Below, piece after piece: positions 7,108 through 58,554 of a stretch of 64,000 bases of DNA. The stretch spans positions 18,189 to 82,188 of the forward strand of contig JAKANL010000003.1 in NCBI GenBank assembly GCA_021823685.1. The letters are read 5' to 3'. The position numbers and the translations under genes were made by a program. This stretch comes from a bacterium (GTDB lineage: Bacteria; Babelota; Babeliae; Babelales; UBA12409). Each line of letters starts with the position of its first letter. Position 1 is the first letter of the stretch. Below the pieces are notes generated by a model. That model searched no databases, had not been told where the DNA came from, and worked only from the letters and a program-made list of their open reading frames with translations.

Positions 7108-7183
7108 TGGCAGGCCAGGAGGGACTCGAACCCCCAACCTTCAGATTTGGAGTCTGTCGCTCTACCATTCGAGCTACTGGCCT
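7108..7183 (-). tRNA. tRNA-Trp (anticodon CCA)
   Basis: rc reads AGGCCAGTAGCTCGAATGGTAGAGCGACAGACTCCAAATCTGAAGGTTGGGGGTTCGAGTCCCTCCTGGCCTGCCA. Acceptor AGGCCAG/CTGGCCT pairs, loop is CT-CCA-AA, T-arm is GGTTCGAGTCC, and CCA is encoded. Confidence 0.9.
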
Positions 7184-7332
7184 CACTCGCGCGGCCACGC
7201 GCCGCGTTACTTAAACTGTTCTCCTCCACCGCTCCACTCGAACCCAATAAATTCGTCTCTTTTTCACCCCGCGCGGTCCTTTGCAAATCCCTGAAGATTG
7301 ACCACCCGGCATTTTCGACGAATCCACTGATC

Positions 7333-7408
7333 TGGAGCCCGCGACCGGGATTGAACCGGTGACCTCTCCCTTACCAAGGAAGTGCTCTACCAACTGAGCT
7401 ACGTGGGC
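7333..7408 (-). tRNA. tRNA-Thr (anticodon GGU)
   Basis: rc reads GCCCACGTAGCTCAGTTGGTAGAGCACTTCCTTGGTAAGGGAGAGGTCACCGGTTCAATCCCGGTCGCGGGCTCCA. Anticodon loop is TT-GGT-AA. There is one A-C mismatch in the acceptor stem. Confidence 0.85.
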
Positions 7409-7585
7409 TTCTCTTACCTAACAACCTCACACTTTTTATATATAGGTTAAAGTAAAAAAAGAAAAAAAACAACTCGCATAGTTGCGTTTTTATGCACGGT
7501 TGCCCTACTTTTACCTACCTTCGGCCTTCTAATTACAGTCAATTCCTCGATTTTATCGCCTTTTTTGACTGTCGCCGACACTTTT

Positions 7586-7661
7586 TGGAGCTGGCGATTG
7601 GATTCGAACCAACGACCTGCTGATTACAAATCAGCTGCTCTACCAGCTGAGCTACGCCAGC
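7586..7661 (-). tRNA. tRNA-Thr (anticodon UGU)
   Basis: rc reads GCTGGCGTAGCTCAGCTGGTAGAGCAGCTGATTTGTAATCAGCAGGTCGTTGGTTCGAATCCAATCGCCAGCTCCA. Acceptor pairing is perfect and the loop is TT-TGT-AA. Confidence 0.9.
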
Positions 7662-7676
7662 GCTCTTTGAATATGT

Positions 7677-7752
7677 TGGAGCGGGAAACGGGACTCGAAC
7701 CCGCAACCTGCAGCTTGGAAGGCTGCCGCTCTAGCCATTGAGCTATTCCCGC
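7677..7752 (-). tRNA. tRNA-Gly (anticodon UCC)
   Basis: rc reads GCGGGAATAGCTCAATGGCTAGAGCGGCAGCCTTCCAAGCTGCAGGTTGCGGGTTCGAGTCCCGTTTCCCGCTCCA. Loop is CT-TCC-AA. Confidence 0.9.
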
Positions 7753-7756
7753 AACC

Positions 7757-7841
7757 TGGTGGTGAGGGTAGGATTTGAACCTACGAAGGCAGAGCCAACG
7801 GATTTACAGTCCGTCCCCTTTGACCGCTCGGGAACCTCACC
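7757..7841 (-). tRNA. tRNA-Tyr (anticodon GUA), long variable arm
   Basis: rc reads GGTGAGGTTCCCGAGCGGTCAAAGGGGACGGACTGTAAATCCGTTGGCTCTGCCTTCGTAGGTTCAAATCCTACCCTCACCACCA. Loop is CT-GTA-AA. It has a class II extra arm. Confidence 0.9.
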
Positions 7842-19019: not shown

Positions 19020-19862
19020 ATGAAATTAGTTCTTTTATCACTCCTAATCAGCACATCTCTTGTGGCTATGGATCTTGAAGAATCATACGTCAGTGCACTT
19101 GGTAGCACCTACAAAAAAAGTACGAGCCCTGTATCAGCATCCTCGCTATCACCCTGGCCCGAATCGTTTGGCGAACAATCCTACGCCGAATCACTCTCTA
19201 GCAGCCCCTCAAATTTCGTTTTTGAGGCAGACCGAGAGATCGCAGTATCCTCCCCCGGCCAATCTGCCAACATAGGCCTACCCGTCGGCCTCGAATGGTG
19301 GCCACCGCTCCCCTGCCCAGCATCTCCGCCACCGACCTCCCAGCCAACAGCTAAAGAAGAACTGCTGTACGCTGCGCCCGAAGATTTGAGCAACGTGCAA
19401 GCTGATAAGCAGCCGATCAGGGATACGCGACGCTGGCATTCTTACCGGCTCGGGTATTTTAATCCTTCCCTTGAGACATGGTTCGAGAGCATTATGGGCA
19501 GCGCAAAACGAGCGCATAAACCGATCGAAATACCGCACGCCCCCGGACCAGTACGCAAGCAAACGCCCCCATCGGCTGACGATCTTGCCCGGCGACTTGC
19601 GTTACTTGACGCGCTCAGTTGCATACGAAGAAGCAGTCACGGTATATTAGTAACTTCAACCAAAGACGAAAGAGAAACCCATGACAAAATTTTTTCTCAC
19701 GACGGTACTGCTGATATTAGCCAACACAACAGAAGCAACGCACAAAATCCCGCTCGAGATCCTCTTCGGCAACCCCAAACAGAGGAACCTCAAAATATCT
19801 CCCGGTGGGCATTATATTTCGTATCTTGCCCCATTCAAGGGCGTCCTCAACCTGTGGGTTAA
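19020..19862 (+). CDS. hypothetical secreted Pro/Ser-rich protein
   Basis: ORF track gives 19005-19862. The ATG at 19020 gives signal-like MKLVLLSLLISTSLVA. The last ~180 nt overlap the next gene, so the 3' end is uncertain. Confidence 0.4.
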   Translation: MKLVLLSLLISTSLVAMDLEESYVSALGSTYKKSTSPVSASSLSPWPESFGEQSYAESLSSSPSNFVFEADREIAVSSPGQSANIGLPVGLEWWPPLPCPASPPPTSQPTAKEELLYAAPEDLSNVQADKQPIRDTRRWHSYRLGYFNPSLETWFESIMGSAKRAHKPIEIPHAPGPVRKQTPPSADDLARRLALLDALSCIRRSSHGILVTSTKDERETHDKIFSHDGTADISQHNRSNAQNPARDPLRQPQTEEPQNISRWALYFVSCPIQGRPQPVG

Positions 19863-24056: not shown

Positions 24057-26423
24057 GTGAAGCGATTGGGAATATTTTTTGCACTTACCGTGCAAGGGTT
24101 GGGGGCAATAAATAGCGAAGTACAATGGCACGATCTTCAAGATTTTTGTATGGGTTTACGGGAAAGTCCTTCGCCCATAAAAGTCCAGTCGAGAAACGAA
24201 TTTGTTGATGGTGGTTCGGCGCTTATTGATTGGGTTGTTCGGCAACATGATTACGGACCTGTAGATTACGAAAATTTTCAAAGCTCACCGAGCGAACAAA
24301 CTTCTTCGCAGAAAGATACTGCGTCACCAACAGATTCCGTTCAGCCCCTAGGCGGGAGGCCCCGCTTCGCTCAAGCTTCCGCCTTCGCTAAAGCTACTGC
24401 GGACAAGATGGCGGACAGGTCTCCGGGCAGCCAGCGATTGACCCCGAAATCCCCCGCTCACTGTTTGAAAAAACTCTCCACTCACAAAAAACTCTCCGCT
24501 CACACTGAGCTTGTCGAAGTGTGCCCATCTTCTCGCCCAGGGCAACACCCGCAGGGCAAGACCCAAAATTTAAAAAATGTTAAAAAAGCTGCAGTTTTCA
24601 AAAGCATGCTCCAACAAAGTAGTAGTATTTCGCAAGTCAAATTGCTTTATACAAACTACTGTTCGCAACTCGATAACCATTTGCTCAATCCAGCCAACTA
24701 CCAGTTGATCGATAAGCGCGTTCGTGCGCTCAAAGCAACGCTCGATCATCCGGGCCAGATTCAGGAGCGAAACATAAAATTTTCAGCGCAAGAACGAGCC
24801 GAGCTTTTAAAATCTGGCGTATCGGCGGCAGCTCTCGCCTCTCTGCGTGGCAGTGCCGCGCAGCTTGAACTGCACGAAGAATACACGTCCGTCTTTGAGC
24901 AATGGGCACAAAAGAGCCACGAAATCCGACGCTCGCTCGTGCAAGAAAGTATTGCGCAGATAACATTACAGTTTGCTGATCTTGCCGATGAATGTAATCG
25001 TAGCAATAATCTTGCTGGCAGTTACGCCATGGCCGACGTTATGCACGCGGCGTGGCAGAGTGTGCAAGAATTTTTTACGCTGGCCAAAGCGACAGCACAG
25101 GTCGATTACGAAGTTCTGGGCATACTGGGCGCAAGCGCGCTTGACGGAGCTCTCTGTGCCGGCTGTTCAACGGCGCAGGCGATCAGCCATCCGGTTCAAA
25201 CGCTCAAGGCTCTTGGCTCAACAATTGCGCGCGTAGCATATACGGCAGATATTTTGCTCGGTAATGATAAGCAGCGCAGTGCCCAAACGCGCGCTGAACT
25301 TTATGCCATGCTCAAGGCAGCAGCCAACGAATTGTCTGCCAAAGCACAATCCCAACACCCCCTCATGACGTTCAGTGACTGCGTATCCGGCGGCACGCAG
25401 TTTGTTGCCGAAGGCGTATTGGCTTCCAAATGCATGACGCTATCAGCAAACGTTCTGAGCAAAAGCGCACAAGCACTTAACAAACTTCCTGAACTGGCAA
25501 AAACAGCCGGCACCAAAATCCGCTTGCCCCTCACCGGCCCACAACGCGAACTGGCTCTTGCGCACGCCCAGGCAAGTATAGGTGAGGGATTTATTGAGGA
25601 AATGGCCCGCGCACAGACAGGTATTAGCGGAGCCCGGCGTAGCCCGATCGTAGCCACGCCCAGCCGTCGCCAAGGGCTATGGCGGGCACGGGTCGAAGAG
25701 GGGCGAAGACGGGTGCTCAAGCAAGAGCAAGAGGCGGTTCAAAAGATACCGGCTCAACAGGCTACTCCAAACGCTTCTGCCGGTTTACAATCGCAAAAAC
25801 CGTCTGCCCAACCGACGACGCCAGTTTCTCCTTCCGGTTTGCAGCCAGCCGTGCCGGGAAAACCGTCGGTTACCACCGCTTTTCCCGGGCCGTTACCAGC
25901 GCCGGGTACCCAGCAACTGCTCAAAGTGTTTGCCCTGCCAGAGCAGCAACGTGCGGCAATTATTGCGCGATACGGCAAACCCATTCCAGAAATTGGTGGC
26001 GGACAATTTAAAAATCCGCTTCACTTAATTGCGATTGATGTGAGAAAAATTGATCAAAAAACGGGTATTGTCAAAGAGTGGATGGGTTTTCACCATGATT
26101 ACCAGCATGTGTTTGAACGTAACAATGTGATTACCTTAACCGAAAAACAAAATTTGGGCGGAGGATTTTACAAAGCAAAACCAATATATGGCACGCAAAT
26201 TCCGAAGTGGAAATCGTTTTTCCCTGCCGAGTGGCCACCGGAAAAGGTTTTTGAAAAGGTTATCGAAGCACACAATAATATAAAAGATATACTGCCTGCG
26301 AGGGGTGGCAGGAAAGAATTAATTGGTTGGCTTGAGCATGAACAAAAAGCAATATCGATTATCGTTGATGACAACAAAGATATTATTACCGCATATCCGA
26401 ATTTTTCTTACCGAGGAAGATGA
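24057..26423 (+). CDS. Sec-signal polymorphic-toxin-like protein with EndoU-like RNase C-terminal domain (copy 1)
   Basis: GTG start after GGGGAG. Signal-like MKRLGIFFALTVQGLGA. The C-terminal ~170 aa read ...PLHLIAIDVRKIDQKTGIVKEWMGFHHDY...KSFFPAEWPPEKVFEKVIEAHNNI...ISIIVDDNKDIITAYP. This fits my memory of the bacterial EndoU nuclease toxin pattern (HIL.G...G.H...K..FP..W....I......I.VV.....I.TAYP). No Rhs/YD, LXG, PAAR or haemagglutinin repeats recognised. Confidence 0.75.
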   Translation: MKRLGIFFALTVQGLGAINSEVQWHDLQDFCMGLRESPSPIKVQSRNEFVDGGSALIDWVVRQHDYGPVDYENFQSSPSEQTSSQKDTASPTDSVQPLGGRPRFAQASAFAKATADKMADRSPGSQRLTPKSPAHCLKKLSTHKKLSAHTELVEVCPSSRPGQHPQGKTQNLKNVKKAAVFKSMLQQSSSISQVKLLYTNYCSQLDNHLLNPANYQLIDKRVRALKATLDHPGQIQERNIKFSAQERAELLKSGVSAAALASLRGSAAQLELHEEYTSVFEQWAQKSHEIRRSLVQESIAQITLQFADLADECNRSNNLAGSYAMADVMHAAWQSVQEFFTLAKATAQVDYEVLGILGASALDGALCAGCSTAQAISHPVQTLKALGSTIARVAYTADILLGNDKQRSAQTRAELYAMLKAAANELSAKAQSQHPLMTFSDCVSGGTQFVAEGVLASKCMTLSANVLSKSAQALNKLPELAKTAGTKIRLPLTGPQRELALAHAQASIGEGFIEEMARAQTGISGARRSPIVATPSRRQGLWRARVEEGRRRVLKQEQEAVQKIPAQQATPNASAGLQSQKPSAQPTTPVSPSGLQPAVPGKPSVTTAFPGPLPAPGTQQLLKVFALPEQQRAAIIARYGKPIPEIGGGQFKNPLHLIAIDVRKIDQKTGIVKEWMGFHHDYQHVFERNNVITLTEKQNLGGGFYKAKPIYGTQIPKWKSFFPAEWPPEKVFEKVIEAHNNIKDILPARGGRKELIGWLEHEQKAISIIVDDNKDIITAYPNFSYRGR

Positions 26424-33277: not shown

Positions 33278-34435
33278 GTGGTGAAGTGGGCAGTAGTATT
33301 TGCGGCCTTAAGTACCGCCAAGTGTTTGTTGGGAGATGGATTTTGCGCAGGGACGCATGTTAAAACGCCTGGTGGTTATGCCGCGATTGAACAGATTAAA
33401 CAAAAAGATCTCATTATTGGTTTTGATGCACGGCTCGGCGTATGCGCACCTTGCATCGTAAATGCGATTAACAAAAAACGTGTGAATCAAGTTATTAGGC
33501 TGACCACTGGGGGGCAAGAGCTCTATGTTGGATGCCAGCAGCGATTTTTGTGCCTGAACCAAAGAAGAAATGATCTGAAGCGCTGGTTGATTTGGACAAA
33601 GGTGCGTGATCTTAAACGGGGTATGCGGCTATTGAGCGCGAATAAAATCAGCGTTTGTGTTGATACCGTTCAGCGTATGGCCAGGCCGATAGATGTATAT
33701 GAGTTAAGTGTAGCTGGGGCGCATACGTATATTGTAACTGAACATGATCTTGTTGCGCACAATGTCGCTCCCATTGTAATTCCCTTTGTTTATACCGTCG
33801 GAGAGGGCGTAACAATTGCCTGGGGAGCTGCGGCGGCGTTGCTTGGATATGCGACGATCCATCACGCTGTAGGAAACCGCTGTGATACGTCAGGATTATG
33901 CGGACCACACACGGTTGATGAAATACAAAATCATCAGGACAATTGGAGTCGCTTAGTCCGCGAGCGAACGATCAGCGCTGATCGTTCTAAACTGCACTTG
34001 TGCTATGGTGGCAGTAATGGAGGGCCAGATCGCAATAATAAGTCGCCATGTAATCCCAATAAGGGAAAAAATAAAAATCCTCAGCAGCCATCGGATCCGA
34101 ATAATGCGCGTAATAAAAATCAAAGGCAAGGGCCGAAAAATGTAAACTCAAGACAAGTTGCTGCCAAAGAACGTAAATTTAATACGATGGAAAGGGCGGA
34201 GGTTTTTCGGAAAGGTAAATTTAAGCAAGACTATAAAACGTGCAAAAACGGCCGTTATGTAAAAAAAACCGGTGTCGAAGGATTTGGGAAAAGAGCGCAA
34301 TATTTAGAGTGGGATAATTTTCATAAAGATATGGAAATGTATGATAAATTTGGCCGGCATCAAGGATGTATAGAGCCGATTACTGAAAAAATATATAAAC
34401 CAGCCGTACCTGGCCGAACGATTAATGTAAGGTAA
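33278..34435 (+). CDS. Hint-domain polymorphic toxin with colicin-E3-like 16S rRNase C-terminal domain
   Basis: 385 aa. Signal-like N-terminus, then Hint blocks GFCAGTHVKTPGGYAAIEQIKQKDLIIGFD ... YELSVAGAHTYIVTEHDLVAHN, then a hydrophobic segment and an Asn/Lys/Pro-rich linker. The C-terminus ...KRAQYLEWDNFHKDMEMYDKFGRHQGCIEPITEKIYKPAVPGRTINV aligns with the colicin E3 end ...KIYEWDSQHGELEGYRASDGQHLGSFDPKTGNQLKGPDPKRNIKKYL recalled from memory. The D, H and E of the catalytic WD..H...E string are retained. Confidence 0.8.
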   Translation: MVKWAVVFAALSTAKCLLGDGFCAGTHVKTPGGYAAIEQIKQKDLIIGFDARLGVCAPCIVNAINKKRVNQVIRLTTGGQELYVGCQQRFLCLNQRRNDLKRWLIWTKVRDLKRGMRLLSANKISVCVDTVQRMARPIDVYELSVAGAHTYIVTEHDLVAHNVAPIVIPFVYTVGEGVTIAWGAAAALLGYATIHHAVGNRCDTSGLCGPHTVDEIQNHQDNWSRLVRERTISADRSKLHLCYGGSNGGPDRNNKSPCNPNKGKNKNPQQPSDPNNARNKNQRQGPKNVNSRQVAAKERKFNTMERAEVFRKGKFKQDYKTCKNGRYVKKTGVEGFGKRAQYLEWDNFHKDMEMYDKFGRHQGCIEPITEKIYKPAVPGRTINVR

Positions 34436-34438
34436 TGT

Positions 34439-35647
34439 ATGAAGAAAATCGACATTCTGGATAAATTGTACAAAAAAATGATCACGCAGAGAGAGGCTGA
34501 GGCCATTTATGTAGACGTTTTTGATAAATTCAATCGAGGGATATTAAAAACTGATCCGGTAAAACTTTTATGTTTATCCCATAAAGAGAAAATTGCGATT
34601 CGGCTGCATGATATATCGCTTAAAGTCTTGGCAAAATGGCGGTATGAGGGTTGGCCAAAAACCTGCGCCATTTGCGATAAACCTGTGGCGATAGGAAAAG
34701 TTGATTGGTGCGTCTTTGAGCGAAAGAAAATTGGCGGTAAAATGCGCAGCGAGGTGGTTATGCATGGGGATTGTTACTCAGCAATGCCCACCCCGAAAAA
34801 GGCATCGCAAGATCTCTACGAGATTTTTGATCGAGCGTGTGCGAAGGCCTCTGATGAACGATTGATGCGCCTTTTAGCGCGATTTAAAAAAATGGATTAC
34901 CTTGCAGCTCCCATCATTTTTGATCTCATTTGTGCAAAAAGAATCAGAGTTCTTAAATTATTGCATGAGCAACACGTACCATTTTCTTATTTGGCTTCTT
35001 CTGGTGGTAACGCACTTCACGCCGCCTGTGGCATTTCAGGCAGCCTTGAGGCGGTAAAATTTTTAATCAAAAATAATATTCTTACGGATATTAATGCCGA
35101 ATGCGATGATGGAGAAACGCCATTTCTTTTGGCTGTGATGTACAATCACATGGATATTGTTGAGTATTTTTTTGAACATTTTACTCCGAATGTAACCATT
35201 TCCACACTTCATGGTGATACACCGCTTTCACTTGCCAAAAAAAATGGCAACACACTATTATACGCTCTTATCACAGCGCATTTGCCAGAAACAAGTACGC
35301 CGATTTTAAAATTAAGTAGAAATGAGCTCAAACACGCTTTCGAAGGTGTATTGGCCATATTAATCGACGACGACATAAAGGAAATTGAATTTCCGGACAG
35401 AGCAATCTATTTTTGTCGGATCTTGAACAAAAAAGATGAAAATGACGGCTCGCCCGAATCAAACATTGTTGGATCATTAAGCGAAGATATGGCATCGCTT
35501 AAAGAAAGTATACATGGTAAAAAAGGATGGTTTGAATTAGACATCGAACGCTTTGGAGCGATACTTCTTGCACTTGGTGCACGAGTAAAAAGTACATATC
35601 CCAAACGCAGAGCACGGGTGTCTGGGCGTAAGATTGACGTGAGATAA
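34439..35647 (+). CDS. ankyrin-repeat protein; candidate immunity partner of the E3-like toxin
   Basis: 402-aa ORF starting 3 nt after the toxin stop. Middle ANK repeats (GGNALHAACGISGSLEAVKFLIKNN...DGETPFLLAVMYNHMDIVEYFF...HGDTPLSLAKKNGNTLL). The N-terminal ~130 aa are unassigned and carry C..C/H..C pairs. Confidence 0.75.
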   Translation: MKKIDILDKLYKKMITQREAEAIYVDVFDKFNRGILKTDPVKLLCLSHKEKIAIRLHDISLKVLAKWRYEGWPKTCAICDKPVAIGKVDWCVFERKKIGGKMRSEVVMHGDCYSAMPTPKKASQDLYEIFDRACAKASDERLMRLLARFKKMDYLAAPIIFDLICAKRIRVLKLLHEQHVPFSYLASSGGNALHAACGISGSLEAVKFLIKNNILTDINAECDDGETPFLLAVMYNHMDIVEYFFEHFTPNVTISTLHGDTPLSLAKKNGNTLLYALITAHLPETSTPILKLSRNELKHAFEGVLAILIDDDIKEIEFPDRAIYFCRILNKKDENDGSPESNIVGSLSEDMASLKESIHGKKGWFELDIERFGAILLALGARVKSTYPKRRARVSGRKIDVR

Positions 35648-38241: not shown

Positions 38242-38610
38242 CTATTTTCCCGTTATCGCGTAGTGCTCGTCATCCTGACTCTCGATGGTAATCTCTTTTG
38301 CGCCCGATGCGACGAGCTTGAGCCAGCCGATCAAAATCTTTTCAAGCTCACTTTCTTTGATGGTGAATGAGGGCCCATCTTCTTCGAATTCGTAACTTAG
38401 CTTTATATAACCATCATGGCGTTCAAGAGTAATAAGATTTCCTCCAGCAGAATCCCAATCTTTATTTTTTTGTAAGAACTCGAGGCTGTATTCGAGAAAA
38501 TCGGGGCAATCACCAACTAAAAATAGCATTAAAAATCCAAAGCCCGCTTCAGGCTCTTCTTTGGGTTTCCAATAGCCCGACTTACTTTCAAATAGAACCA
38601 TTTTTTTCAT
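38242..38610 (-). CDS. candidate cognate immunity protein (copy 2)
   Basis: 122-aa ORF with ATGA overlap with toxin copy 2. Its C-terminal half is near-identical to copies 1 and 3; its N-terminal half is diverged. Confidence 0.7.
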   Translation of the reverse strand: MKKMVLFESKSGYWKPKEEPEAGFGFLMLFLVGDCPDFLEYSLEFLQKNKDWDSAGGNLITLERHDGYIKLSYEFEEDGPSFTIKESELEKILIGWLKLVASGAKEITIESQDDEHYAITGK

Positions 38611-41042
38611 TTTTTTACTTTCTTCAATAAATCCGGATACGCCGTAATGATATTCTTACTCTTATCGATAATAATTTTTATTGCTTTTTGTTCAGTTTCG
38701 AGCCACCCAACCAGTACCTGTCTACCCGCTTCTGCTGGATAAATTTCCTTTATATTTCCATATGCCTCAAGAACTTTCTCAAAGACTTTTTCTGGCGGCC
38801 AGTCTGCTGGGAAAAATGATTTGGGAGTCGGTTTTTGCATTCCATATTTTGCCTCTTTAACAAAATAAAAACCACCACCATAATCAAGCTTGTTAGGCAA
38901 ACTAATCACATTATTTCGCTCAAGCACACATCGGTAATCATGGTGAAATCCCATCCATTTTTCAACAAGGCCACTTTTTTGATCAATTTTTCTGACGTCA
39001 AGCGCAATCAAATGGAGCGGTTGTGTAAAACATGCACCACCAATTTCCGGAATCGGTTTGCCATATCGCGCAATAATCGCTGCACGTTGTTGCTCCGGCA
39101 GGGCAAACACTTTGAGCAATTGCTGGGTACCCGGCGCGGGTAACGGCCCGGGAAAAGCGGTGGTAACGGTTGGTTTCTCAGGTACGGCTGGTTGCAAACC
39201 GGAAGAAACTGGCTTCGTCGGCTGAGCAAGCGGATTCTGCGGCTGTGACCCTGAAGAAGCTCCTGCTGGCTGGGTGGGTATTTTTTGAGCCGCCTGTTGC
39301 TCTTGCTTGAGCAGATTGCTGGCAAGCGATTTTTTCGGCGCATGGGCAAGCTCTTCGGCAAAGCCCTCGCCGATACTGGCTTGTGCATGAGCAAGGGCGA
39401 ATTCGCGCTGTGAGCCGGCAAGCGGCAAGCGGATTTTGGTGCCCGAGGCCCTGTCCGCCATCTTGTCCGCCATAGTCTTGACGACGGCGGAAGTCTTGAC
39501 GGCGGCGGAGGCTTTTGCCAGCGCGGGAAGTTTGTTAAGTGCTTGTGCGCTTTTGTTCAGAACGTTTGCCGATAGCGTTAAACATTTGGAAGCCAATACG
39601 CCTTCGGCAACAAACTGCGTACCGCCGGATACGCAATCACTGAACGTCATGAGAGGGTGTTGGGACTTAGCTTTGGCACACAATTCGTTGGCTGCTGCCT
39701 TGAGCATGGCATAAAGTTCAGCGCGCGTTTGGGCACTGCGTTGCTCATCATCGCCGAGCAAAATATCTGCCGTATATGCCACGCGTGCAATTGTTGCACC
39801 GAGAGTTTTCAGCGAGGCGAAAAGATTTTCGGCTGTTTGAAGGGGATGAACAACCATCTGCGCTGTTGAGCAGCCGGCACAGAGAGCTCCGTCAAGCGCG
39901 CTTGTGCCCAGTATGCCCAGAACTTCGTAATCGACCTGTGCTGTCGCTTTGGCCAGCGTAAAAAATTCTTGCACACTCTGCCACGCCGCATGCATAACGT
40001 CGGCCATAGCGTAACCGCCAGCAAGATTATTGCCGCGGTTAAACGCATCGGCACATTCGGCAAATTGCAGCGCAATATGCGCAATATGTTCTTGAACGAG
40101 CGAGCGTCGGATTTCGTGACTCTTTTGCGCCCATTGTTCAAAGACGGACCTGTATTCTTCGTGCAGTTCTACCTGCGCAGCGTTACCACGCAGGGGAAGA
40201 AGTGCAGCCGCTGGCATACCAGCTTTTGTAAGCTCAGTCCGTTCCTGCGCTGAAAGTTTTATGTTGCGCTCGTGCAATTGCCCCGGGTGATCAAGGGTTG
40301 CTTTGAGCGCACGAACGCGTTTATCGATTATTTGGTAACTGGTTGGATTAAGCGAACGGTTATCGAGCTGTGAACAGTAGTTTGTGTAGAGTTGTTTGGC
40401 CTGCCCTGCGGAGCCTTGGCAAAGCGGGGTTTGAGCAATACTGCTGTTTTGTTGGAGCATGTTTTTTGCCGCGATAGTTGTCTTAAAATGATTTTGAGCC
40501 TTTGCGCTCACTGTTGTGGTCTGAGCCGAATGCTCGAACTTCTCGTTCGGGGTCGACAGGCGAGCGGCCACCTTGGGAGCGCAGGGTTTCCAAAGGGGTT
40601 TACCCCCTTTGGCGTGGGGATTGGAAAGGGCCGAACGAGGGGTCCTTTCCGGCCTCCCGCGTAGGGGCAAAACTGAATTTGATATGGTAACGTTCTGCGT
40701 AGAATGGTACTCACAATGTCTCTGCGCGTTCTCGTACTCTTGGCAAGCCTGTATCCATCGTTGTTCGCGCATCTGCTCAATAATTTCAAAGTTTTCTGGC
40801 ATACTCTGATGGTCGGTTCGATATGATACGTCTATCTGTACAGGATTGTGGTACGTTAATGCGTCACTTGATCGAGGCAAACACATTCGTATAGTAGCCG
40901 ATTCTGGCCATTGAACGTGCAAAGCTTGCTCTTTGTGTTGTCTTAACAAAGCCGTCTGGGCAGCCAGCTTAATATCACGTGCTGGCAAATTACTTTGACA
41001 AGCAATACTTGTCAGAAAAATAACTACTCTCAATCGTTTCAC
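38607..41042 (-). CDS. Sec-signal polymorphic-toxin-like protein with EndoU-like RNase C-terminal domain (copy 2)
   Basis: 811 aa. GTG start after AGGGG. Signal-like MKRLRVVIFLTSIACQS. Central region near-identical to copy 1. C-terminus ...HLIALDVRKIDQKSGLVEKWMGFHHDY...KSFFPADWPPEKVFEKVLEAY...IKIIIDKSKNIITAYP. Confidence 0.75.
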   Translation of the reverse strand: MKRLRVVIFLTSIACQSNLPARDIKLAAQTALLRQHKEQALHVQWPESATIRMCLPRSSDALTYHNPVQIDVSYRTDHQSMPENFEIIEQMREQRWIQACQEYENAQRHCEYHSTQNVTISNSVLPLRGRPERTPRSALSNPHAKGGKPLWKPCAPKVAARLSTPNEKFEHSAQTTTVSAKAQNHFKTTIAAKNMLQQNSSIAQTPLCQGSAGQAKQLYTNYCSQLDNRSLNPTSYQIIDKRVRALKATLDHPGQLHERNIKLSAQERTELTKAGMPAAALLPLRGNAAQVELHEEYRSVFEQWAQKSHEIRRSLVQEHIAHIALQFAECADAFNRGNNLAGGYAMADVMHAAWQSVQEFFTLAKATAQVDYEVLGILGTSALDGALCAGCSTAQMVVHPLQTAENLFASLKTLGATIARVAYTADILLGDDEQRSAQTRAELYAMLKAAANELCAKAKSQHPLMTFSDCVSGGTQFVAEGVLASKCLTLSANVLNKSAQALNKLPALAKASAAVKTSAVVKTMADKMADRASGTKIRLPLAGSQREFALAHAQASIGEGFAEELAHAPKKSLASNLLKQEQQAAQKIPTQPAGASSGSQPQNPLAQPTKPVSSGLQPAVPEKPTVTTAFPGPLPAPGTQQLLKVFALPEQQRAAIIARYGKPIPEIGGACFTQPLHLIALDVRKIDQKSGLVEKWMGFHHDYRCVLERNNVISLPNKLDYGGGFYFVKEAKYGMQKPTPKSFFPADWPPEKVFEKVLEAYGNIKEIYPAEAGRQVLVGWLETEQKAIKIIIDKSKNIITAYPDLLKKVKK

Positions 41043-49427: not shown

Positions 49428-49898
49428 TTACTTTCTGCTTTTTTTACTTTCCGGACCATCCATAAAGCATATCGATGAAAAGCTTGTCGCATCTATCGCC
49501 GGCGATGGCAGTTGCAACGGCGACAAAAAAACCAAAAATCGACGATCTTTGCCCGTAATCGATTTACGATGCACAACTACCGGATGCCCGGCCACGTGCG
49601 CAGGACTTGTAATGGGCGACGAACACGCCACGTCGGCAGTTTTATCCGGCATAATGAGCGGCCTGAGCCCGAGCGCGTCTGGCGTTTTTGTTGCACCTGA
49701 TATGTACGCTGCAGGGCTGGAACCGCAACAGGCAAATTCCTGCGCCCCCAATTCCAACCGCTCAAGATCCTCGGATATACTTTGCGATCGCTTAAGCAAT
49801 CGCGCTTCATCCGGAGAATTTGGTTGCGCTTCACGATCCATACAAAAAAGGTTCATCGTACAAACAAGCATCATCACCACCCAGCGCGTTTCTTTCAT
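49428..49898 (-). CDS. hypothetical secreted protein
   Basis: 156-aa ORF with signal-like MKETRWVVMMLVCTMNLFC. The plus-strand ORF 49378-49971 competes. Strand chosen on the signal peptide only. Confidence 0.35.
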   Translation of the reverse strand: MKETRWVVMMLVCTMNLFCMDREAQPNSPDEARLLKRSQSISEDLERLELGAQEFACCGSSPAAYISGATKTPDALGLRPLIMPDKTADVACSSPITSPAHVAGHPVVVHRKSITGKDRRFLVFLSPLQLPSPAIDATSFSSICFMDGPESKKSRK

Positions 49899-51988: not shown

Positions 51989-52384
51989 CTACTTTACCGC
52001 CTCAGCCGTCACGTATGATGCAGCGCCGAGAGGACTTAGCGTGTATTCGCCGTTGGCGCTTCTGACCTGTGATTTATCTAAAACGGTACGGATACTCAGT
52101 GAGACATACCCATTTTCGTCAATAAAGCCCAGCTCGCGCGCCTCGTCCAAAACGCGCCCCTCTAATTTATATGAAGAATCGTAGCAAGCATAAAAAAATT
52201 TAGATCGATCCGTTTCGCTCAACACGGCATGCAGCTGCGCCAAACGATGCGCAACAAGAGCTACAAATGGTTTTGACAATGCCAAGCCGTCACAGCCTTT
52301 ACCATACTGACAATCCGGTTGCATCGCATTGCCAGTATTGGCCACTAAAACAGTTGCAAGCATCGCACACAATTTTGCTTTCAT
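51989..52384 (-). CDS. hypothetical secreted protein
   Basis: Track ORF is 51989-52441. The internal ATG at 52384 after AAGGAG gives MKAKLCAMLATVLVANTGNA. Confidence 0.4.
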   Translation of the reverse strand: MKAKLCAMLATVLVANTGNAMQPDCQYGKGCDGLALSKPFVALVAHRLAQLHAVLSETDRSKFFYACYDSSYKLEGRVLDEARELGFIDENGYVSLSIRTVLDKSQVRSANGEYTLSPLGAASYVTAEAVK

Positions 52385-52466: not shown

Positions 52467-52826
52467 TTAGAGGCACGATGCGAGATATTTACCAACAAAT
52501 ACCGCAAGCAAGCATAATGCAACATTTGCCAAAATATTGCCGGCAGCAGCACCATATCGCTCGGTCTGCCACAGCGCAACCGTTTCCAGCGCAAAGGCAG
52601 ACATCGTGGTATAAGCACCGCAAAAGCCAACGATCAGCCAGTTGCGCGTCTGAGGCGTAATATAGCCAGAAGAAACACCACCAATAACCATACCGGCAAT
52701 AAAGCAACCCGTCACATTAACGACCAGAGTTGCTAGGGGAAATGCTGTAGCTACAAACCACCGTAAAACGGCATATCTGGCGCATATACCACACAACCCA
52801 GCGATGATAACATTCAAAACGTTCAT
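52467..52826 (-). CDS. crcB: fluoride ion channel CrcB/FluC
   Basis: 119 aa, four hydrophobic segments. ...PLATLVVNVTGCFIAG... and ...GFCGAYTTMSAFALE... are typical CrcB motifs. Confidence 0.85.
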   Translation of the reverse strand: MNVLNVIIAGLCGICARYAVLRWFVATAFPLATLVVNVTGCFIAGMVIGGVSSGYITPQTRNWLIVGFCGAYTTMSAFALETVALWQTERYGAAAGNILANVALCLLAVFVGKYLASCL

Positions 52827-53431
52827 ACCATCTCCTGTTTAAGTGCACGTAATGCCTGGGGTAAGAAATCGCTCAGCTCATGAGTATTAACAATCAAAAA
52901 ACGATCGGGCGCGCGACGGCACGTTTCGCAGGTAGAATCGGCATTTTCGCACAAAGGGTTATATGCCTTTGCCCCCATAGCAAGCGCATACATTGCCAAG
53001 CGACCGTTACCATCTTGTATGGCGCGCTTCAAAACAACATCGCGCGTACCGGGCAAGCCAGTAATTTCTGCGAGATATTCGGGATCAGCCTGTTTAGACA
53101 ATCGAGCAAGATCCTGACAGCGACAACCGCCTTTGTGAACCATCAGCTTCATAAAAACATATGCGTTAACATAGGGGCGTAACCATTCTGGGCACTGAGC
53201 GCAAAAGTGAAGCAAACGCGCGCATTGCCGAGGCAAATAACGCGCATGAGATCGAAATAATACAATACAATGCTCTGCCGCCTCTTGAGCAACAGTGTGA
53301 ACTTCATGTTCACGAGGGTCCCGGCGCAGTGAACGCATCTGCGCAAATAGCGTTTTTTCAGCCGAACCTTTGTCCATGCCATAACTTAAAGTAAAGAACC
53401 CCAGCACTAAAGGCCCAATCATTTTATTCAT
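52823..53431 (-). CDS. hypothetical secreted protein
   Basis: 202-aa ORF with signal-like MNKMIGPLVLGFFTLSYG. Its stop overlaps the crcB start (ATGA). Cys-rich. No family recognised. Confidence 0.45.
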   Translation of the reverse strand: MNKMIGPLVLGFFTLSYGMDKGSAEKTLFAQMRSLRRDPREHEVHTVAQEAAEHCIVLFRSHARYLPRQCARLLHFCAQCPEWLRPYVNAYVFMKLMVHKGGCRCQDLARLSKQADPEYLAEITGLPGTRDVVLKRAIQDGNGRLAMYALAMGAKAYNPLCENADSTCETCRRAPDRFLIVNTHELSDFLPQALRALKQEMV

Positions 53432-54033: not shown

Positions 54034-54273
54034 ATGACATTTTTACGCGGTATGTCGATCAAAAGCCACGCTCCTTACGCGCAGGTAGGCGCGCTCCTTG
54101 AAAATTTTGTTGTAGCCGAATTGACCAAACAAATCACGTGGAGCCAGCCGCGCGTCAAATTATTCCACGCGCGTACAACGGCAGGAATTGAAGTTGATTG
54201 TCTTTTGGAAGATGCGGCAGGACGTATTGTGGGCATCGAGATTAAAAACGCCCAATATGCTTCTCTTCGGTAA
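54034..54273 (+). pseudogene. C-terminal fragment of an AAA-ATPase-associated DUF4143-like domain
   Basis: 79 aa. ...GALLENFVVAELTKQITWSQPRVKLFHARTTAGIEVDCLLEDAAGRIVGIEIKNA resembles the restriction-endonuclease-like tail of ATPase (DUF4143) proteins. The ATPase part is missing. Confidence 0.5.
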
Positions 54274-54391
54274 GTTGAGCTAATTTTTTTCCTATAACAA
54301 GTATCGCCGCGGCCGGCAGCTTTTGAAGATCTTTTTGAGTGCTTTTTGTCAAAACAACCGAATAACCCTTGAGAACGTTGATGAAAGTCAT
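54242..54391 (-). pseudogene. truncated RelE/ParE-like toxin fragment
   Basis: Manual translation gives MTFINVLKGYSVVLTKSTQKDLQKLPAAAILVIGKKLAQLTEEKHIGRF*. The (Y).I.....A.KDL.KLP pattern is that of RelE/ParE N-termini. It is cut short where it collides with the ATPase fragment. Confidence 0.35.
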
Positions 54392-54501
54392 TTTTTCATT
54401 AGCGCCAACGTTTCTTGAACGGCTTTTTCGAAGGGAATAAATTTTTCTTTTTTACCGCTTCTTGCACGAATTAATTGATAATCTTGGTAATCCTCAAGCA
54501 T
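54388..54501 (-). CDS. possible short antitoxin-like ORF (37 aa)
   Basis: MLEDYQDYQLIRARSGKKEKFIPFEKAVQETLALMKK. Its stop overlaps the RelE-like ATG (ATGA). Too short for a confident call. Confidence 0.3.
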   Translation of the reverse strand: MLEDYQDYQLIRARSGKKEKFIPFEKAVQETLALMKK

Positions 54502-54514
54502 AGTAATGCATTTT

Positions 54515-55252
54515 TCAAAATCCTTGATGATTAAGGAGCATTTTTGCCACGGTTTTATCCCCATTTTTTATGGCATAGCAAAGCGCTGTTAGATAGTGGC
54601 CTCCGTAGGTAAAAGGCTCATCTATCCTGATGTTTGGTTGATCTAAAAGTATTCGCATAATCGTCACGTTTCCGTTTACTACAGCCCAAGTAAGCGCGGT
54701 TGCGCGGTTTCGATTATGTGCGTTTACATTAACACCATGAGCTAAACATGCCAATAATTTTTTTGGATCGTTGTTCCGTGCAGCCTTTACAAGCTGTTCG
54801 GCATTAAAAATGGAAGTGCAGAGGGCAGGTGCTGGCGCATGGCCGGCCGGGGCGACCGGATCTTCTGCAAGGGCAGCTTGCACCAGAGAAGGCAGTTTGC
54901 GTAAGCCTTTTCGGCAAAACGGGCATGTTATTGGTAAACCTTCTTTCTTACAACGTTCTATCCAACGAGCCATGCAGGCGTCGTGGTAGCGATAGTTGGG
55001 ATGGTGGCAAACAAACGGCAATCCTTCACTGTCGGCCACTTCACCGCCAGAAGATAGTGAATCAGAACAAATAGGGCAATCTGCATCAGTTGAACTGACT
55101 GCAGCGCTGTGATCTACGGTTTGTGCCACAGCGCATAGGGCTTTTTTCTTTTCATCTCCTGAGCCGCCTGCAGTGTCGTGATTCATGGCATGCATGTTTC
55201 GGCTGCTCAAGAGTACAGCGCTGCACAATACCATTTTATGTATATTTTTCAT
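54515..55252 (-). CDS. secreted RING-H2-like zinc finger + ankyrin-repeat protein (eukaryote-like E3 ligase effector candidate)
   Basis: 245 aa. Signal-like MKNIHKMVLCSAVLLSS. CPICSDSL-x-VCHHPNYRYHDACMARWIERCKKEGLPITCPFCRK follows C-x2-C...C-x-H...H-x2-C...W...C-x2-C. C-terminal ANK repeats (NRNRATALTWAVVNGNVTIMRILL..., LTALCYAIKNGDKTVAKMLL). Confidence 0.7.
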   Translation of the reverse strand: MKNIHKMVLCSAVLLSSRNMHAMNHDTAGGSGDEKKKALCAVAQTVDHSAAVSSTDADCPICSDSLSSGGEVADSEGLPFVCHHPNYRYHDACMARWIERCKKEGLPITCPFCRKGLRKLPSLVQAALAEDPVAPAGHAPAPALCTSIFNAEQLVKAARNNDPKKLLACLAHGVNVNAHNRNRATALTWAVVNGNVTIMRILLDQPNIRIDEPFTYGGHYLTALCYAIKNGDKTVAKMLLNHQGF

Positions 55253-55289
55253 GGGGACATTACTCCTAAACGATTTTGATTTTACTTAT

Positions 55290-56170
55290 CGATATGATAG
55301 CACCGTAAAAAAGCCACGATAAATAACATTTTTTAAGCGGTGCTATCATGAGAAAAGAGTATATCAATGAATTTGCTTGGAACAAAATTTTTAAATTTTT
55401 GCGATCTCAAAAAGGTTTGTACGTAAAAACAGAAGCCTCAGCCAAAAATTTTGCTGAAGGAGTCTTCTGGATGGCGCGAACCGGAGCTCAATGGCGAGAG
55501 TTGCCGGAGAATTATGGAAAGTGGAACAGTGTGTTCAAAAGATTTAACGAATGGTCACAAAAAGAAGTTTGGAGCAAACTTCTTGAATTTTGCGTCGAAG
55601 ATCCCGATCTTGAATATATAAGTATTGATGCAACTATAGTACGTACGCATGTGCTGCTGGATATGGGAATCAGGCCGCTGAGGGGCTTGGTCGAAGTCGG
55701 GGTGGTTTTACCAGTAAAATTCATGCAAAAGCTGATGCACTTGGAAATTCATTGAAAATGTTGATTACCCCTGGTCAAACAAGTGACTTTGTAAGCGCCC
55801 CAGAGTTACTTACAAACATTGAAGGAACAATCTATGTGTTAGGAGACAGGGGATATGATTCAGCACAGATCAGAGAACGAATAAGAGGCCAAAAAAGTGC
55901 GCCAGTTATACCGTCCAAATCAAACAGCAAATCGCCTGCTGATTATGACAAATATATTTATAAAGAACGCCATGTTGTTGAATGCTTCTTTTTAAAATTA
56001 AAGTATTTCAGGCGGATTTTTTCTCGTTTTGATAAATCAATGCGAAATTTGCTTCGTTTCTATCGTTTGTTGGAGCTTGCATATGGTTGCGATGAAAACT
56101 CAACAGAACCTAATCATCATTGCATAAATTATCACAGTAACTCTTCAAAACGATAGACTTGATCAAGTCG
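55290..56170 (+). mobile_element. IS5-family (IS427/IS1031-like group) insertion sequence, ends not defined, transposase disrupted
   Basis: Transposase blocks ...WMARTGAQWRELPENYGKWNSVFKRFNEWS..., ...GRSRGGFTSKIHAKADALGNSLKMLITPGQ... (seen in a shifted frame), ...VLGDRGYDS..., ...YKERHVVECFFLKLKYFRRIFSRFDK.... I could not identify terminal inverted repeats. Confidence 0.7.
55348..56095 (+). pseudogene. IS5-family DDE transposase with two frame disruptions
   Basis: Track ORFs 55348-55755 and 55752-56156. Homology continues in the -1 frame from about 55650 (ACAAGYGNQAAEGLGRSRGGF...) with no slippery heptamer. The canonical end FASFLSFVGACIWLR* (stop 56093-56095) is in a different frame from FDKSMRN. 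Confidence 0.7.
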
Positions 56171-57050: not shown

Positions 57051-57149
57051 TACTCTTCATGCGCTCCCTCTAAAAAACCCTACCCTGAATAACACGTAGC
57101 ATAATAAACGTTATTCAAGCAATGCTTTTGCCCGCTATAAGCCCCACTC

Positions 57150-57179
57150 TAGAAATATTTTTTGGCAATGAGCTAAGCT
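57150..57179 (+). promoter_or_regulatory. candidate promoter (TAGAAA-18-TAAGCT) of toxin copy 3
   Basis: TAAGCT at 57174-57179 lies within a ~27-nt block shared with 33215-33241. The -35 is weaker than in the other two copies. Confidence 0.3.
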
Positions 57180-57208
57180 GTCACTTTGTCTTTTTTAGGA
57201 GGGTTGGC

Positions 57209-58554
57209 GTGAGACAGTTGTGGATCGTTTTTTTACTTGCCGCGCAAAGCATAATAGCAGTCGATTGGATGGTGCCGCCGCGCATTTTACGCCAGCAAGA
57301 AACAGCAATCGCAGTGGCGTTTTTGCCACAAAAAACGCCACTGCAAGTTCAGTCACAAAACGAGTTTGTCGATGGCGGTTCTGCGCTTATGGATTGGGTC
57401 ATCCGGCAGCGTGATTACATGCCTGCATATCACGAAAGCATTCCAACCCCAGAAAATACTGTGTCGCCAACAAACCAAAATAATAATCAGCCTAAAAAAG
57501 TCGTGCTCGCGCATGCTTCCGCCGTCGCTAAAGCTAAGGCGGACAGGTCTTCGGGCAACTGGCGATCGACCAAAAAAACAACTGGTCAAGCCAACGCGGC
57601 TGCTGCGGCCGTCTTGCGGAAGCAACAGATAAAACAACTCTACACAAACTTCTGTTCACAACTCGATAATAAAACAATTGATACCAAGAATTACCAAATA
57701 ATCGATAAACGCGTTCGCGCACTCAAAGCAACTCTCGACCATCCTGGTCAGATTCAGGAACGAAGCATAAAATTTTCAGCGCAAGAACAAGCCGAGCTTT
57801 TAAAATCTGGCGTGCCAGCAGCGGCGCTTACTTCGCTACGCGGCAACGCTGCGCAAGCCGAACTACACGAAGAATACGGGTCAGTTTTTGAACAGTGGGC
57901 ACAAAAGAACAGCAGACTGCCCAACAAATATCCACCCAGCAAGCAACACCGATTTCTTCTCCCGGCCTACAACCAGCTGTTTCTGAAAAACCAATCGTTA
58001 CCGCCGCTTTTTCTGGGCCATTACCAGCGCCTGGCACCCAACAGTTGCTCAAAGTGTTTGCGCTGCCCGAACAGCAACGGAAGGCAATTATTGCCCGATA
58101 CGGCAAACCAATTTCTGAAACAGATGGCCTTTGTTTTAAGAATCCACTCCATTTGATAACAATTGATGTGAGAAAAATTGATCAAAAAACTGGTATCGTC
58201 AAAGAGTGGATGGGATTCCATCATGATCATTTAAATACACTTGAGCGGAACAATGTTGTCAAAATAACCAGCAGGAATGATTTTGGTGATAGTTTTTATG
58301 AAGCAATCGTAGCGTATGGAACGCAAGTGCCAAAGAAAAAATCTTTTTTCCCAGCCGAATGGCCGCCGGAAAAAGTCTTTGAAAAAGTTCTTGAGGCCTA
58401 TGAAAACATTATCGAAACAACTTCAACAAACTCAGGTGGACAAAAAATAATTGGTTGGCTTGAAAAGGAGCAAAAAACAATCGAGATTATAATGGACAAA
58501 AACAGGAATATTATTACAGCATACCCAAAACTGCTATACGAGGGGTCCAAATGA
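57209..58554 (+). pseudogene. EndoU-like toxin copy 3, internally deleted (~0.8 kb) and frameshifted
   Basis: GTG 57209 after AGGAGG gives VRQLWIVFLLAAQSIIA. Homology to copy 1 runs to ...FEQWAQK (about 57900), then jumps to ...EQQTAQQISTQQATP... in another frame (track ORFs 57122-58156 and 57895-58554). The C-terminal EndoU-like domain is intact (GFHHDH...KKSFFPAEWPPEKVFEKVLEAY...IITAYP). Confidence 0.7.

Follow-up and report, generated by a model that had tools for sequence, protein, structure and literature searches.

A RING-H2 and ankyrin gene of a Dependentiae bacterium that probably encodes a secreted, eukaryote-like E3 ubiquitin ligase

We analysed a 64,000-nucleotide stretch of bacterial DNA (contig JAKANL010000003.1 of assembly GCA_021823685.1; hereafter the window) and, in particular, a gene on its minus strand that combines a RING-H2 finger with ankyrin repeats. 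The region 54515..55252 is a single open reading frame (ORF) that starts with ATG and encodes 245 amino acids (aa) followed by a stop codon, and its product begins with a signal-like leader, followed by a RING-H2 finger and then by three ankyrin repeats. A protein in the public collection, P0001, is identical to this product, and a relative, P0002, shares 58% identity with it. The start codon is preceded, 10 nt to its 5' side, by a ribosome-binding site that is conserved with the P0002 locus. The RING and ankyrin assignments can be made with high confidence, and we consider it probable that a member of the Dependentiae secretes this protein as an effector, a eukaryote-like E3 ubiquitin ligase of the RING type. 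The parts of the gene are listed below, with the evidence for each in parentheses.

54515..55252, minus strand: RING-ankyrin ORF (ORF list, sequence, identical public protein P0001)
55263..55267, minus strand: ribosome-binding site AGGAG (sequence; upstream alignment with the P0002 locus)
55187..55252, minus strand: signal-peptide-like leader, aa 1-22, MKNIHKMVLCSAVLLSSRNMHA (inspection; layout kept in homologues)
55082..55186, minus strand: low-complexity spacer, aa 23-57, disordered in the model (predicted local distance difference test score, pLDDT, below 50 for residues 15-55; 49% identity to P0002)
54908..55081, minus strand: RING-H2 finger, aa 58-115 (zf-RING_2 match, family conservation, profile against the Protein Data Bank (PDB), model)
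54803..54907, minus strand: Pro/Ala-rich linker, aa 116-150, with a short conserved helix, L..LVQAAL (alignments; pLDDT low at 121-146)
54518..54802, minus strand: three ankyrin repeats, aa 151-245, with an abrupt end, ...LLNHQGF* (Ank_2, pLDDT >90, alignment with relatives)

The finger carries eight metal ligands in the order C-C-C-H-H-C-C-C (C59, C62, C82, H84, H90, C93, C110 and C113), spaced as C59-x2-C62-x19-C82-x-H84-x5-H90-x2-C93-x16-C110-x2-C113. This bears out the RING-H2 motif that the original prediction, a note made from the sequence alone, had read at 54515-55252, as well as its remark that the spacing between ligands 4 and 5 is longer than canonical. The Pfam family zf-RING_2 matches aa 58-114 above its curated cut-off (28.6 bits, E=1.8e-6; cut-off 27.3). 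Judging from the alignments, the long spacing is a variant common to a whole family of related proteins, in which 3-4 residues are inserted between ligands 4 and 5 (spacing mostly 5-6). The family consensus at this point is C-x-H-P-x3-Y-H-D-x-C, whereas the nearest other RING-H2 fingers have the canonical spacing, C-x-H-x2-H-x2-C. A profile of ten family sequences matches only RING E3 ligases in the PDB, the best being the MEKK1 SWIM-RING (E=1.2e-9), followed by RNF4 (6.5e-9) and RNF126 (1e-6), with further matches to Rad5, RLIM, ZNRF3 and others. With canonical-spacing RING relatives added to the profile, the PDB matches reach E=1e-12 to 1e-17. In the profile alignment the MEKK1 RING has a ligand 3-5 loop of similar length, and the unusual spacing therefore has a counterpart in a solved RING. 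A search of PDB sequences with the whole protein returned only ankyrin proteins, both designed and natural, because the ankyrin part dominates the score.

The predicted structure leads to the same class of domain. In the full-length AlphaFold model the RING has a pLDDT of 65-84. A model of the RING alone (45 sequences; pLDDT 74.7) contains two short strands and then, from ligands 5/6 onwards, a helix, and its best Foldseek matches are all RING domains (RNF25/AO7, RNF165, Rad5, Arkadia and RNF13). For instance, RNF25/AO7, solved with UbcH5B, superimposes with a template modelling (TM) score of 0.58 and a root-mean-square deviation (rmsd) of 2.2 A over 65 columns, and RNF165, solved with UbcH5B~Ub, with an rmsd of 2.5 A. 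The two computational checks proposed with the original prediction, a hidden Markov model (HMM) search for zf-RING_2 and Ank and a structure prediction, thus both came out in its favour, with the two domain types above their curated thresholds and a RING-type fold whose best structural matches are RING E3 domains. Two other assignments of the finger were rejected. A PHD or other treble-clef finger is disfavoured by the PHD_NSD score of 13.7 bits against a cut-off of 23.9 and by the fact that the strong matches are all RING E3s; a U-box E3 of the LubX or NleG type is disfavoured by the retention of all eight Cys/His ligands and by the lack of a U-box among the Pfam matches. No second RING was found elsewhere in the window.

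The positions of a RING that usually contact the E2 are also filled, by I61, W97 and P111, with R114 as the linchpin. We take W97 (four residues past ligand 6), P111 (past ligand 7) and the linchpin R114 (past ligand 8) to be contacts of E2~ubiquitin, as in established RING-E2~Ub structures. A hydrophobic residue before the second Cys, here I61, is a usual E2 contact (PMC12591485). In the ten-sequence family alignment W97 and R114 are invariant and I61 and P111 occur in at least 90% of the sequences, while I61 is invariant in an alignment of nine full-length proteins. The conservation of these four non-ligand residues is an argument that the finger works as a ligase and is not simply structural.

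The family to which the protein belongs is rare, with about ten proteins among 1.84 billion cluster representatives. It was found by an exhaustive HMM search of these representatives with the N-terminal 145 residues as query, which gave 59 matches; under a RING-only profile the family members score 63-104 bits and are set apart from the other matches, which score at most 55 bits. A word-indexed protein search recovered 2-3 members only, a search of genome contigs with the window protein gave no confirmed relative, and a scan of metagenome contigs with a two-sequence alignment found nothing. Six relatives have the architecture leader, RING and ankyrin (P0002, P0006, P0009, P0012, P0021 and P0054), P0005 has a leader and three RINGs, and P0008 and P0011 have a leader, a RING and a hydrophobic tail. 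Across the ten-sequence alignment C59, C62, F80, C93, W97, C110, C113, R114 and L117 are invariant, and C82, H84 and T109 join I61 and P111 in the group present in at least 90%. The Cys/His residues are therefore conserved in homologues, as the original prediction required, with isolated substitutions in a few members: at each of C82, H84 and H90 one or two of them have another residue, and ligand 5 (H90) is Cys in two.

Comparison with P0002 indicates where selection has acted. Identity between the two proteins is 84% in the RING but falls to 49-52% in leader, spacer and ankyrin part. Different codons encode 16 of the 47 residues that the two RINGs have in common, which points to purifying selection on the finger and not to recent exchange of DNA. 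The family has also expanded in at least one other organism, since P0005 and P0009 lie next to each other on a contig of sample ERZ1426829 and two further paralogues, P0006 and P0021, come from the same metagenome. On that contig the RING-ankyrin gene P0009 is followed, 28 nt on, by its paralogue P0005, which has the same leader and three tandem RING fingers. The relatives' genes lie in tightly packed, prokaryote-style arrays, on contigs that are all short.

Many of the canonical-spacing RING relatives outside the family have a eukaryotic look (acidic low-complexity tracts, SWIM-RING architectures). The nearest non-family RINGs may nevertheless not be eukaryotic, as the best of them, P0023, is encoded on a tightly packed contig of five genes, among them another RING gene. 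All five genes of this contig (L014, 1-2894) are on one strand, and it is prokaryotic or viral in look, not eukaryotic. We tentatively propose, with somewhat less than even confidence, a rare family of zinc-RING E3 ligases, exported by the Sec/type II route and not described before, that would be marked by the distinctive C-x-H-P-x3-Y-H-D-x-C insertion and might be Dependentiae-specific. Its RING may derive from the protist MEKK1/SWIM type, and the family would have diversified into RING-ankyrin, triple-RING and possibly membrane-anchored forms.

Behind the RING and the linker lie the ankyrin repeats, of which the original prediction had counted at least two and the AlphaFold model gives three, as helix pairs at 151-171, 186-203 and 223-240 with pLDDT >90. 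Four Pfam families match this part above their cut-offs: Ank_2 at aa 154-242 (47.6 bits; cut-off 27.3), Ank_3 at aa 184-210 (35.7 bits; 22.3), Ank at aa 221-242 (29.1 bits; 21.1) and Ank_4 at aa 155-203 (28.9 bits; 22.7). In P0002, P0006, P0009, P0012 and P0021 the chain runs on past '...LLNHPxIDVN' with at least one more repeat and terminates in a cap, '...LLIAHGA', that is conserved among them. The gene in the window has lost its 3' end, a feature newly recognised here, as is its position between a transposase gene and foreign DNA. Nucleotide similarity to the P0002 gene, at 73%, extends from 55284 to 54526 and is then gone (blastn of locus L003 against the window), and the last codons and the stop of the window ORF come from DNA unrelated to the P0002 gene. 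No remnant of the missing C-terminus was found, whether in one of the downstream reading frames or in the rest of the window. The product nevertheless keeps the leader, the RING and three complete repeats, and hence may still work.

The N-terminus also has the signal-like character that had been claimed for it. By inspection, it has a basic start (K2, K6), an 11-residue hydrophobic core (MVLCSAVLLSS) and a small residue before a conserved M-[D/N], and this layout is conserved in P0002, P0005, P0006, P0009, P0012 and P0021. Cleavage would most likely occur just before M23 (...HA|MNHD), as judged from the residues around the site. The putative site of the window protein has A at -1 but Met at -3, and the region fits better in homologues, which have LQA|MD, SFA|MD and AFG|MD. 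A lipoprotein signal was rejected, since Leu precedes C10 and the Cys is not conserved (Phe in P0002). The same pattern of basic start, hydrophobic core, small residue and M-[D/N/Q] is seen in five ORFs of the window. Three of them lie in a cluster with the RING gene and match no family. This shared pattern may be a lineage-typical signal-peptide cleavage motif. The five ORFs are:

19020-19862, plus strand: ORF with the leader pattern
49428-49898, minus strand: ORF with the leader pattern
51989-52384, minus strand: ORF with the leader pattern
52823-53431, minus strand: ORF with the leader pattern
54515-55252, minus strand: the RING-ankyrin ORF

The organism can be placed through radA, which the window carries (TIGR00416, 462 bits). 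The encoded RadA is 59-63% identical to RadA of Candidatus Dependentiae/Babeliales metagenome-assembled genomes and 33% identical to a Firmicutes protein, which shows that the window comes from a member of the Dependentiae (TM6). Cultured Dependentiae are obligate intracellular parasites of protists (PMC4378268, PMC6561590), and the host-associated lifestyle suggested in the original prediction is thereby confirmed. Signal peptides are common on ankyrin proteins in this phylum: they were reported on 79 of the 126 ankyrin proteins of Babela massiliensis (PMC4378268), and in Chromulinavorax destructans 44% of all coding sequences carry a signal, as do 78% of its 98 ankyrin proteins (PMC6561590). 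Type II was the sole secretion system found in B. massiliensis (PMC4378268), and type II components belong to the gene set common to TM6 genomes (PMC4776705). One RING-finger protein, a potential E3, was noted in B. massiliensis (PMC4378268), so that signal-peptide ankyrin proteins and a RING-finger protein have been on record for Dependentiae since 2015 (PMC4378268, PMC6561590). The assertion that RING fingers are essentially eukaryotic was accordingly too strong, given this Babela protein (PMC4378268) and an active zinc-RING E3 in Simkania (PMC12591485).

These features are consistent with the following mechanism, in which zinc binding, the choice of E2, ligase activity, secretion route and substrate are what we infer for the window protein. 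The N-terminal leader would route the protein through Sec, and the type II system would release it from the bacterium; because the bacteria replicate inside the host cell, the exported protein would reach host proteins. There the RING-H2 finger would hold two zinc ions in a cross-brace, one by C59/C62 with H90/C93 and the other by C82/H84 with C110/C113, and would dock a host E2~ubiquitin through I61, W97 and P111, with R114 as the linchpin. The C-terminal ankyrin repeats would bind a host substrate or another effector, and the bound protein, or the ligase itself, would be ubiquitinated straight from the E2. The earlier interpretation of an exported RING-ankyrin fusion as an E3 mimic is thus supported as far as computation goes, with E3 activity and delivery to the host as its inferential steps.

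The surroundings of the gene bear on whether this copy is functional. An insertion sequence (IS) transposase gene of the IS4/IS5 type, present in a single copy in the window, starts 95 bp upstream on the divergent strand. Its division over two ORFs at 55348-56156 (+) suggests a programmed frameshift or decay. A TAAAAT box is, like the ribosome-binding site, conserved with the P0002 locus, and the upstream similarity between the two loci gives out some 33-45 nt ahead of the ATG. Downstream lie two short minus-strand ORFs, at 54388-54564 and 54242-54391, with no Pfam or NCBIfam match, and a plus-strand fragment at 54034-54273 with only the C-terminal end of a DUF4143 protein. The short ORFs were considered as a toxin-antitoxin pair, which was rejected for want of Pfam or NCBIfam support even at E=10. 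Guanine-plus-cytosine (GC) content is 0.43 in the RING-gene region, 0.39-0.53 elsewhere in the window and about 46% for the window as a whole. Two further assemblies (L001 and L002) carry the same 6.4-kb stretch, 100% identical to the window.

54518..54526, no strand: 3' breakpoint (blastn and DNA alignment against the P0002 gene, L003)
55348..56156, plus strand: IS4/IS5-type transposase in two ORFs, DUF4096 and then DDE_Tnp_1 (Pfam; gene calls in L001 and L002)
54034..54564, no strand: foreign or decayed downstream DNA (Pfam, NCBIfam, translations)

It should be noted that several observations weigh against reading the gene as that of an exported, active ligase. The zf-RING_2 score exceeds the Pfam cut-off by a mere 1.3 bits, ligands 4 and 5 are separated by five residues where 2-3 are canonical, confidence in the RING of the AlphaFold model is moderate (pLDDT 65-89), and the Foldseek E-values of the RING-only model are weak (at least 0.02), as is usual for a 60-residue domain. 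The leader was recognised as a putative signal peptide by inspection. The window copy is the sole family member tied to a Dependentiae genome, and the three assemblies that carry the gene, being 100% identical, provide no independent evidence. This copy is, moreover, without the fourth and last ankyrin repeat and the C-terminal cap, and a consensus promoter scan found no promoter on the strand of the RING gene. With these parts lost, and with at most about 95 bp of upstream DNA before the IS transposase, the copy may be impaired or silent. Carried further, this would make it a decaying remnant of a RING-ankyrin effector, whose 3' end was removed by rearrangement or insertion, upstream of which an IS landed, and which is no longer functional or expressed. 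That history would account for the absence of the fourth repeat and 'LLIAHGA' cap, which all five full-length ankyrin-bearing relatives possess, for the end of homology to the P0002 gene at 54526 and 55284, for the nearby transposase gene, for the DUF4143 fragment and unmatched short ORFs downstream, and for the failure to find a promoter-like site. We nevertheless regard it as unlikely, if the most serious of the alternatives, since the 245 codons form an uninterrupted frame in which the leader, the RING and three whole repeats are intact, the ankyrin part is modelled at pLDDT >90, and the ribosome-binding site and TAAAAT box are conserved with the P0002 locus; three ankyrin repeats can, in general, form a stable domain.

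Many RING-like treble-clef fingers have no E3 activity, and the non-canonical ligand-4/5 spacing and marginal HMM score could be taken to mean that the finger is a zinc-stabilised protein-binding module or a decoy for host E2s, with the ankyrin repeats serving localisation. We think this rather improbable, because the E2/ubiquitin contacts I61, W97, P111 and R114 are invariant or nearly so in the family, beyond the metal ligands, and because the sequence and fold matches are all to catalytic RING E3s, several of them solved with UbcH5B. The rarity of the family, and the fact that giant viruses have RING-ankyrin proteins, with the best viral fold match coming from Feldmannia species virus, raise the question of whether eukaryotic or giant-virus DNA entered by misassembly or whether the Cys/His pattern arose by chance. 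Either would be very surprising, as the gene has a bacterial ribosome-binding site, no introns and a GC content inside the window's range, shares its window with radA and a tRNA cluster, recurs with the same 6.4-kb stretch in two further assemblies and has relatives in tightly packed prokaryote-style gene arrays, and as the pattern is conserved and scores above curated HMM thresholds. Finally, the window holds several EndoU-domain ORFs and a PT-HINT/Cytotoxic ORF with an ankyrin ORF directly behind it, and the protein might accordingly belong to a bacterial toxin or conflict system, for example as an ankyrin-type immunity protein or adaptor for the EndoU or colicin-like toxins. This is again a very improbable role, since no toxin gene adjoins the RING gene, the sole PADLOC match is weak and comes through the ankyrin repeats, and a RING with E2 contacts would be partnerless without a ubiquitin system, with no E1 or E2 gene among the neighbouring ORFs scanned. 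Hence, we favour the interpretation as a secreted RING-type E3 ligase effector.

Among characterised proteins, a close parallel is SneRING (SNE_A12920) of Simkania negevensis, a zinc-RING E3 with experimentally shown activity (PMC12591485). Both come from an obligate intracellular, amoeba-associated bacterium and have an N-terminal RING, a linker and a second domain, and SneRING uses the E2s UbcH5b and UBE2T, the same type of mechanism as proposed here for the window protein (PMC12591485). SneRING differs in having NxxC in place of CxH and Ser at the hydrophobic E2 contact, whereas the window protein is standard at both positions; its C-terminal alpha/beta domain has no informative relatives and a signal peptide is unmentioned, in contrast to the ankyrin repeats and putative Sec-type leader of the window protein (PMC12591485). 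The comparison between SneRING and the window family is one of features. Legionella provides further bacterial E3 effectors, namely AnkB (F-box and ankyrin), LubX and RavN (U-box-like) and Lpg2370 and MavM (RING-like), in which, similarly, a borrowed eukaryotic E3 module and a protein-binding module redirect host ubiquitination (PMC7542358, PMC5819833). However, the F-box of AnkB joins a host SCF complex and binds no E2 of its own, LubX and RavN have zinc-free U-box-type folds, and the Legionella effectors are delivered by the Dot/Icm type IV system and not by a Sec leader (PMC7542358, PMC5819833). Babela and Chromulinavorax belong to the same phylum as the window organism and have signal-bearing ankyrin proteins proposed to be secreted into the host cytoplasm, but the papers describing them report neither a RING-ankyrin fusion nor the ligand-4/5 insertion nor the window family (PMC4378268, PMC6561590). 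Compared with known bacterial E3 mimics, the window protein is thus set apart by a putative Sec-type leader where others have a type III/IV signal, by the order RING-H2 then ankyrin, and by the family-specific insertion.

The best sequence and fold matches of the window RING are eukaryotic RING-H2 E3s (MEKK1/MAP3K1 SWIM-RING, RNF4, RNF126 and Arkadia/RNF165), which share its ligand order, the W four residues past ligand 6 and the C-P-x-C-R ending (motif W-x3-C...TCPxCR). Identity to them is about 25-35%, and the window family differs from them in its own insertion and its putative bacterial export signal. The plant proteins XB3/XBAT also join ankyrin repeats and a RING in one polypeptide, but with the ankyrin part first and a C3HC4 RING last; assignment to this type was rejected on account of the reversed domain order and of a RING_XB3-XBAT31 score of 13.1 bits, where the cut-off is 50. 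In BFVD, the best fold match is to a Feldmannia species virus protein annotated as 'putative ubiquitin ligase/ankyrin repeat protein', at 16% identity and with poor superposition (rmsd 17 A).

Dependentiae are widespread protist parasites of which few are cultured, and they encode hundreds of signal-peptide ankyrin proteins with no assigned biochemical activity. The RING-ankyrin protein gives one of these a testable function, namely the E2-dependent transfer of ubiquitin to a host protein that the ankyrin repeats select, and it would join the few bacterial zinc-RING ligases on record as one delivered by the Sec/type II route. If active, it would represent zinc-RING ubiquitin ligases delivered without type III/IV injection, as well as a tractable entry to the effector biology of Dependentiae, and the ligand-4/5 insertion conserved in the family offers a natural way to test which spacings are compatible with a functional RING. 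We would like to emphasize that the borrowing of ubiquitin ligases by intracellular bacteria is already established (Legionella, chlamydiae, Babela), and that the present finding extends this picture and does not change it.

The neighbours of the RING gene comprise the transposase, ORFs that match no family, a CrcB-family gene (PF02537; gene calls in L001) and the ORFs with signal-like leaders. No context of bacterial ubiquitin-like conjugation or defence was found, the one PADLOC match being to a candidate-system model. Elsewhere in the window, a bacterial EndoU nuclease domain forms the C-terminal end of three large ORFs with a polymorphic-toxin layout, at 24057-26423 (+), 38607-41042 (-) and 57122-58554 (+); the last is split into overlapping ORFs (57122-58156 and 57895-58554) and may be frameshifted. 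The ORF at 33278-34435 (+) combines pretoxin-HINT and colicin-type 'Cytotoxic' RNase domains and is followed, 3 nt on, by a 402-aa ankyrin-repeat ORF at 34439-35647 (+); the two could form a toxin/immunity pair. Five tRNA genes (Trp, Thr, Thr, Gly and Tyr) are clustered at 7108-7841 (-).

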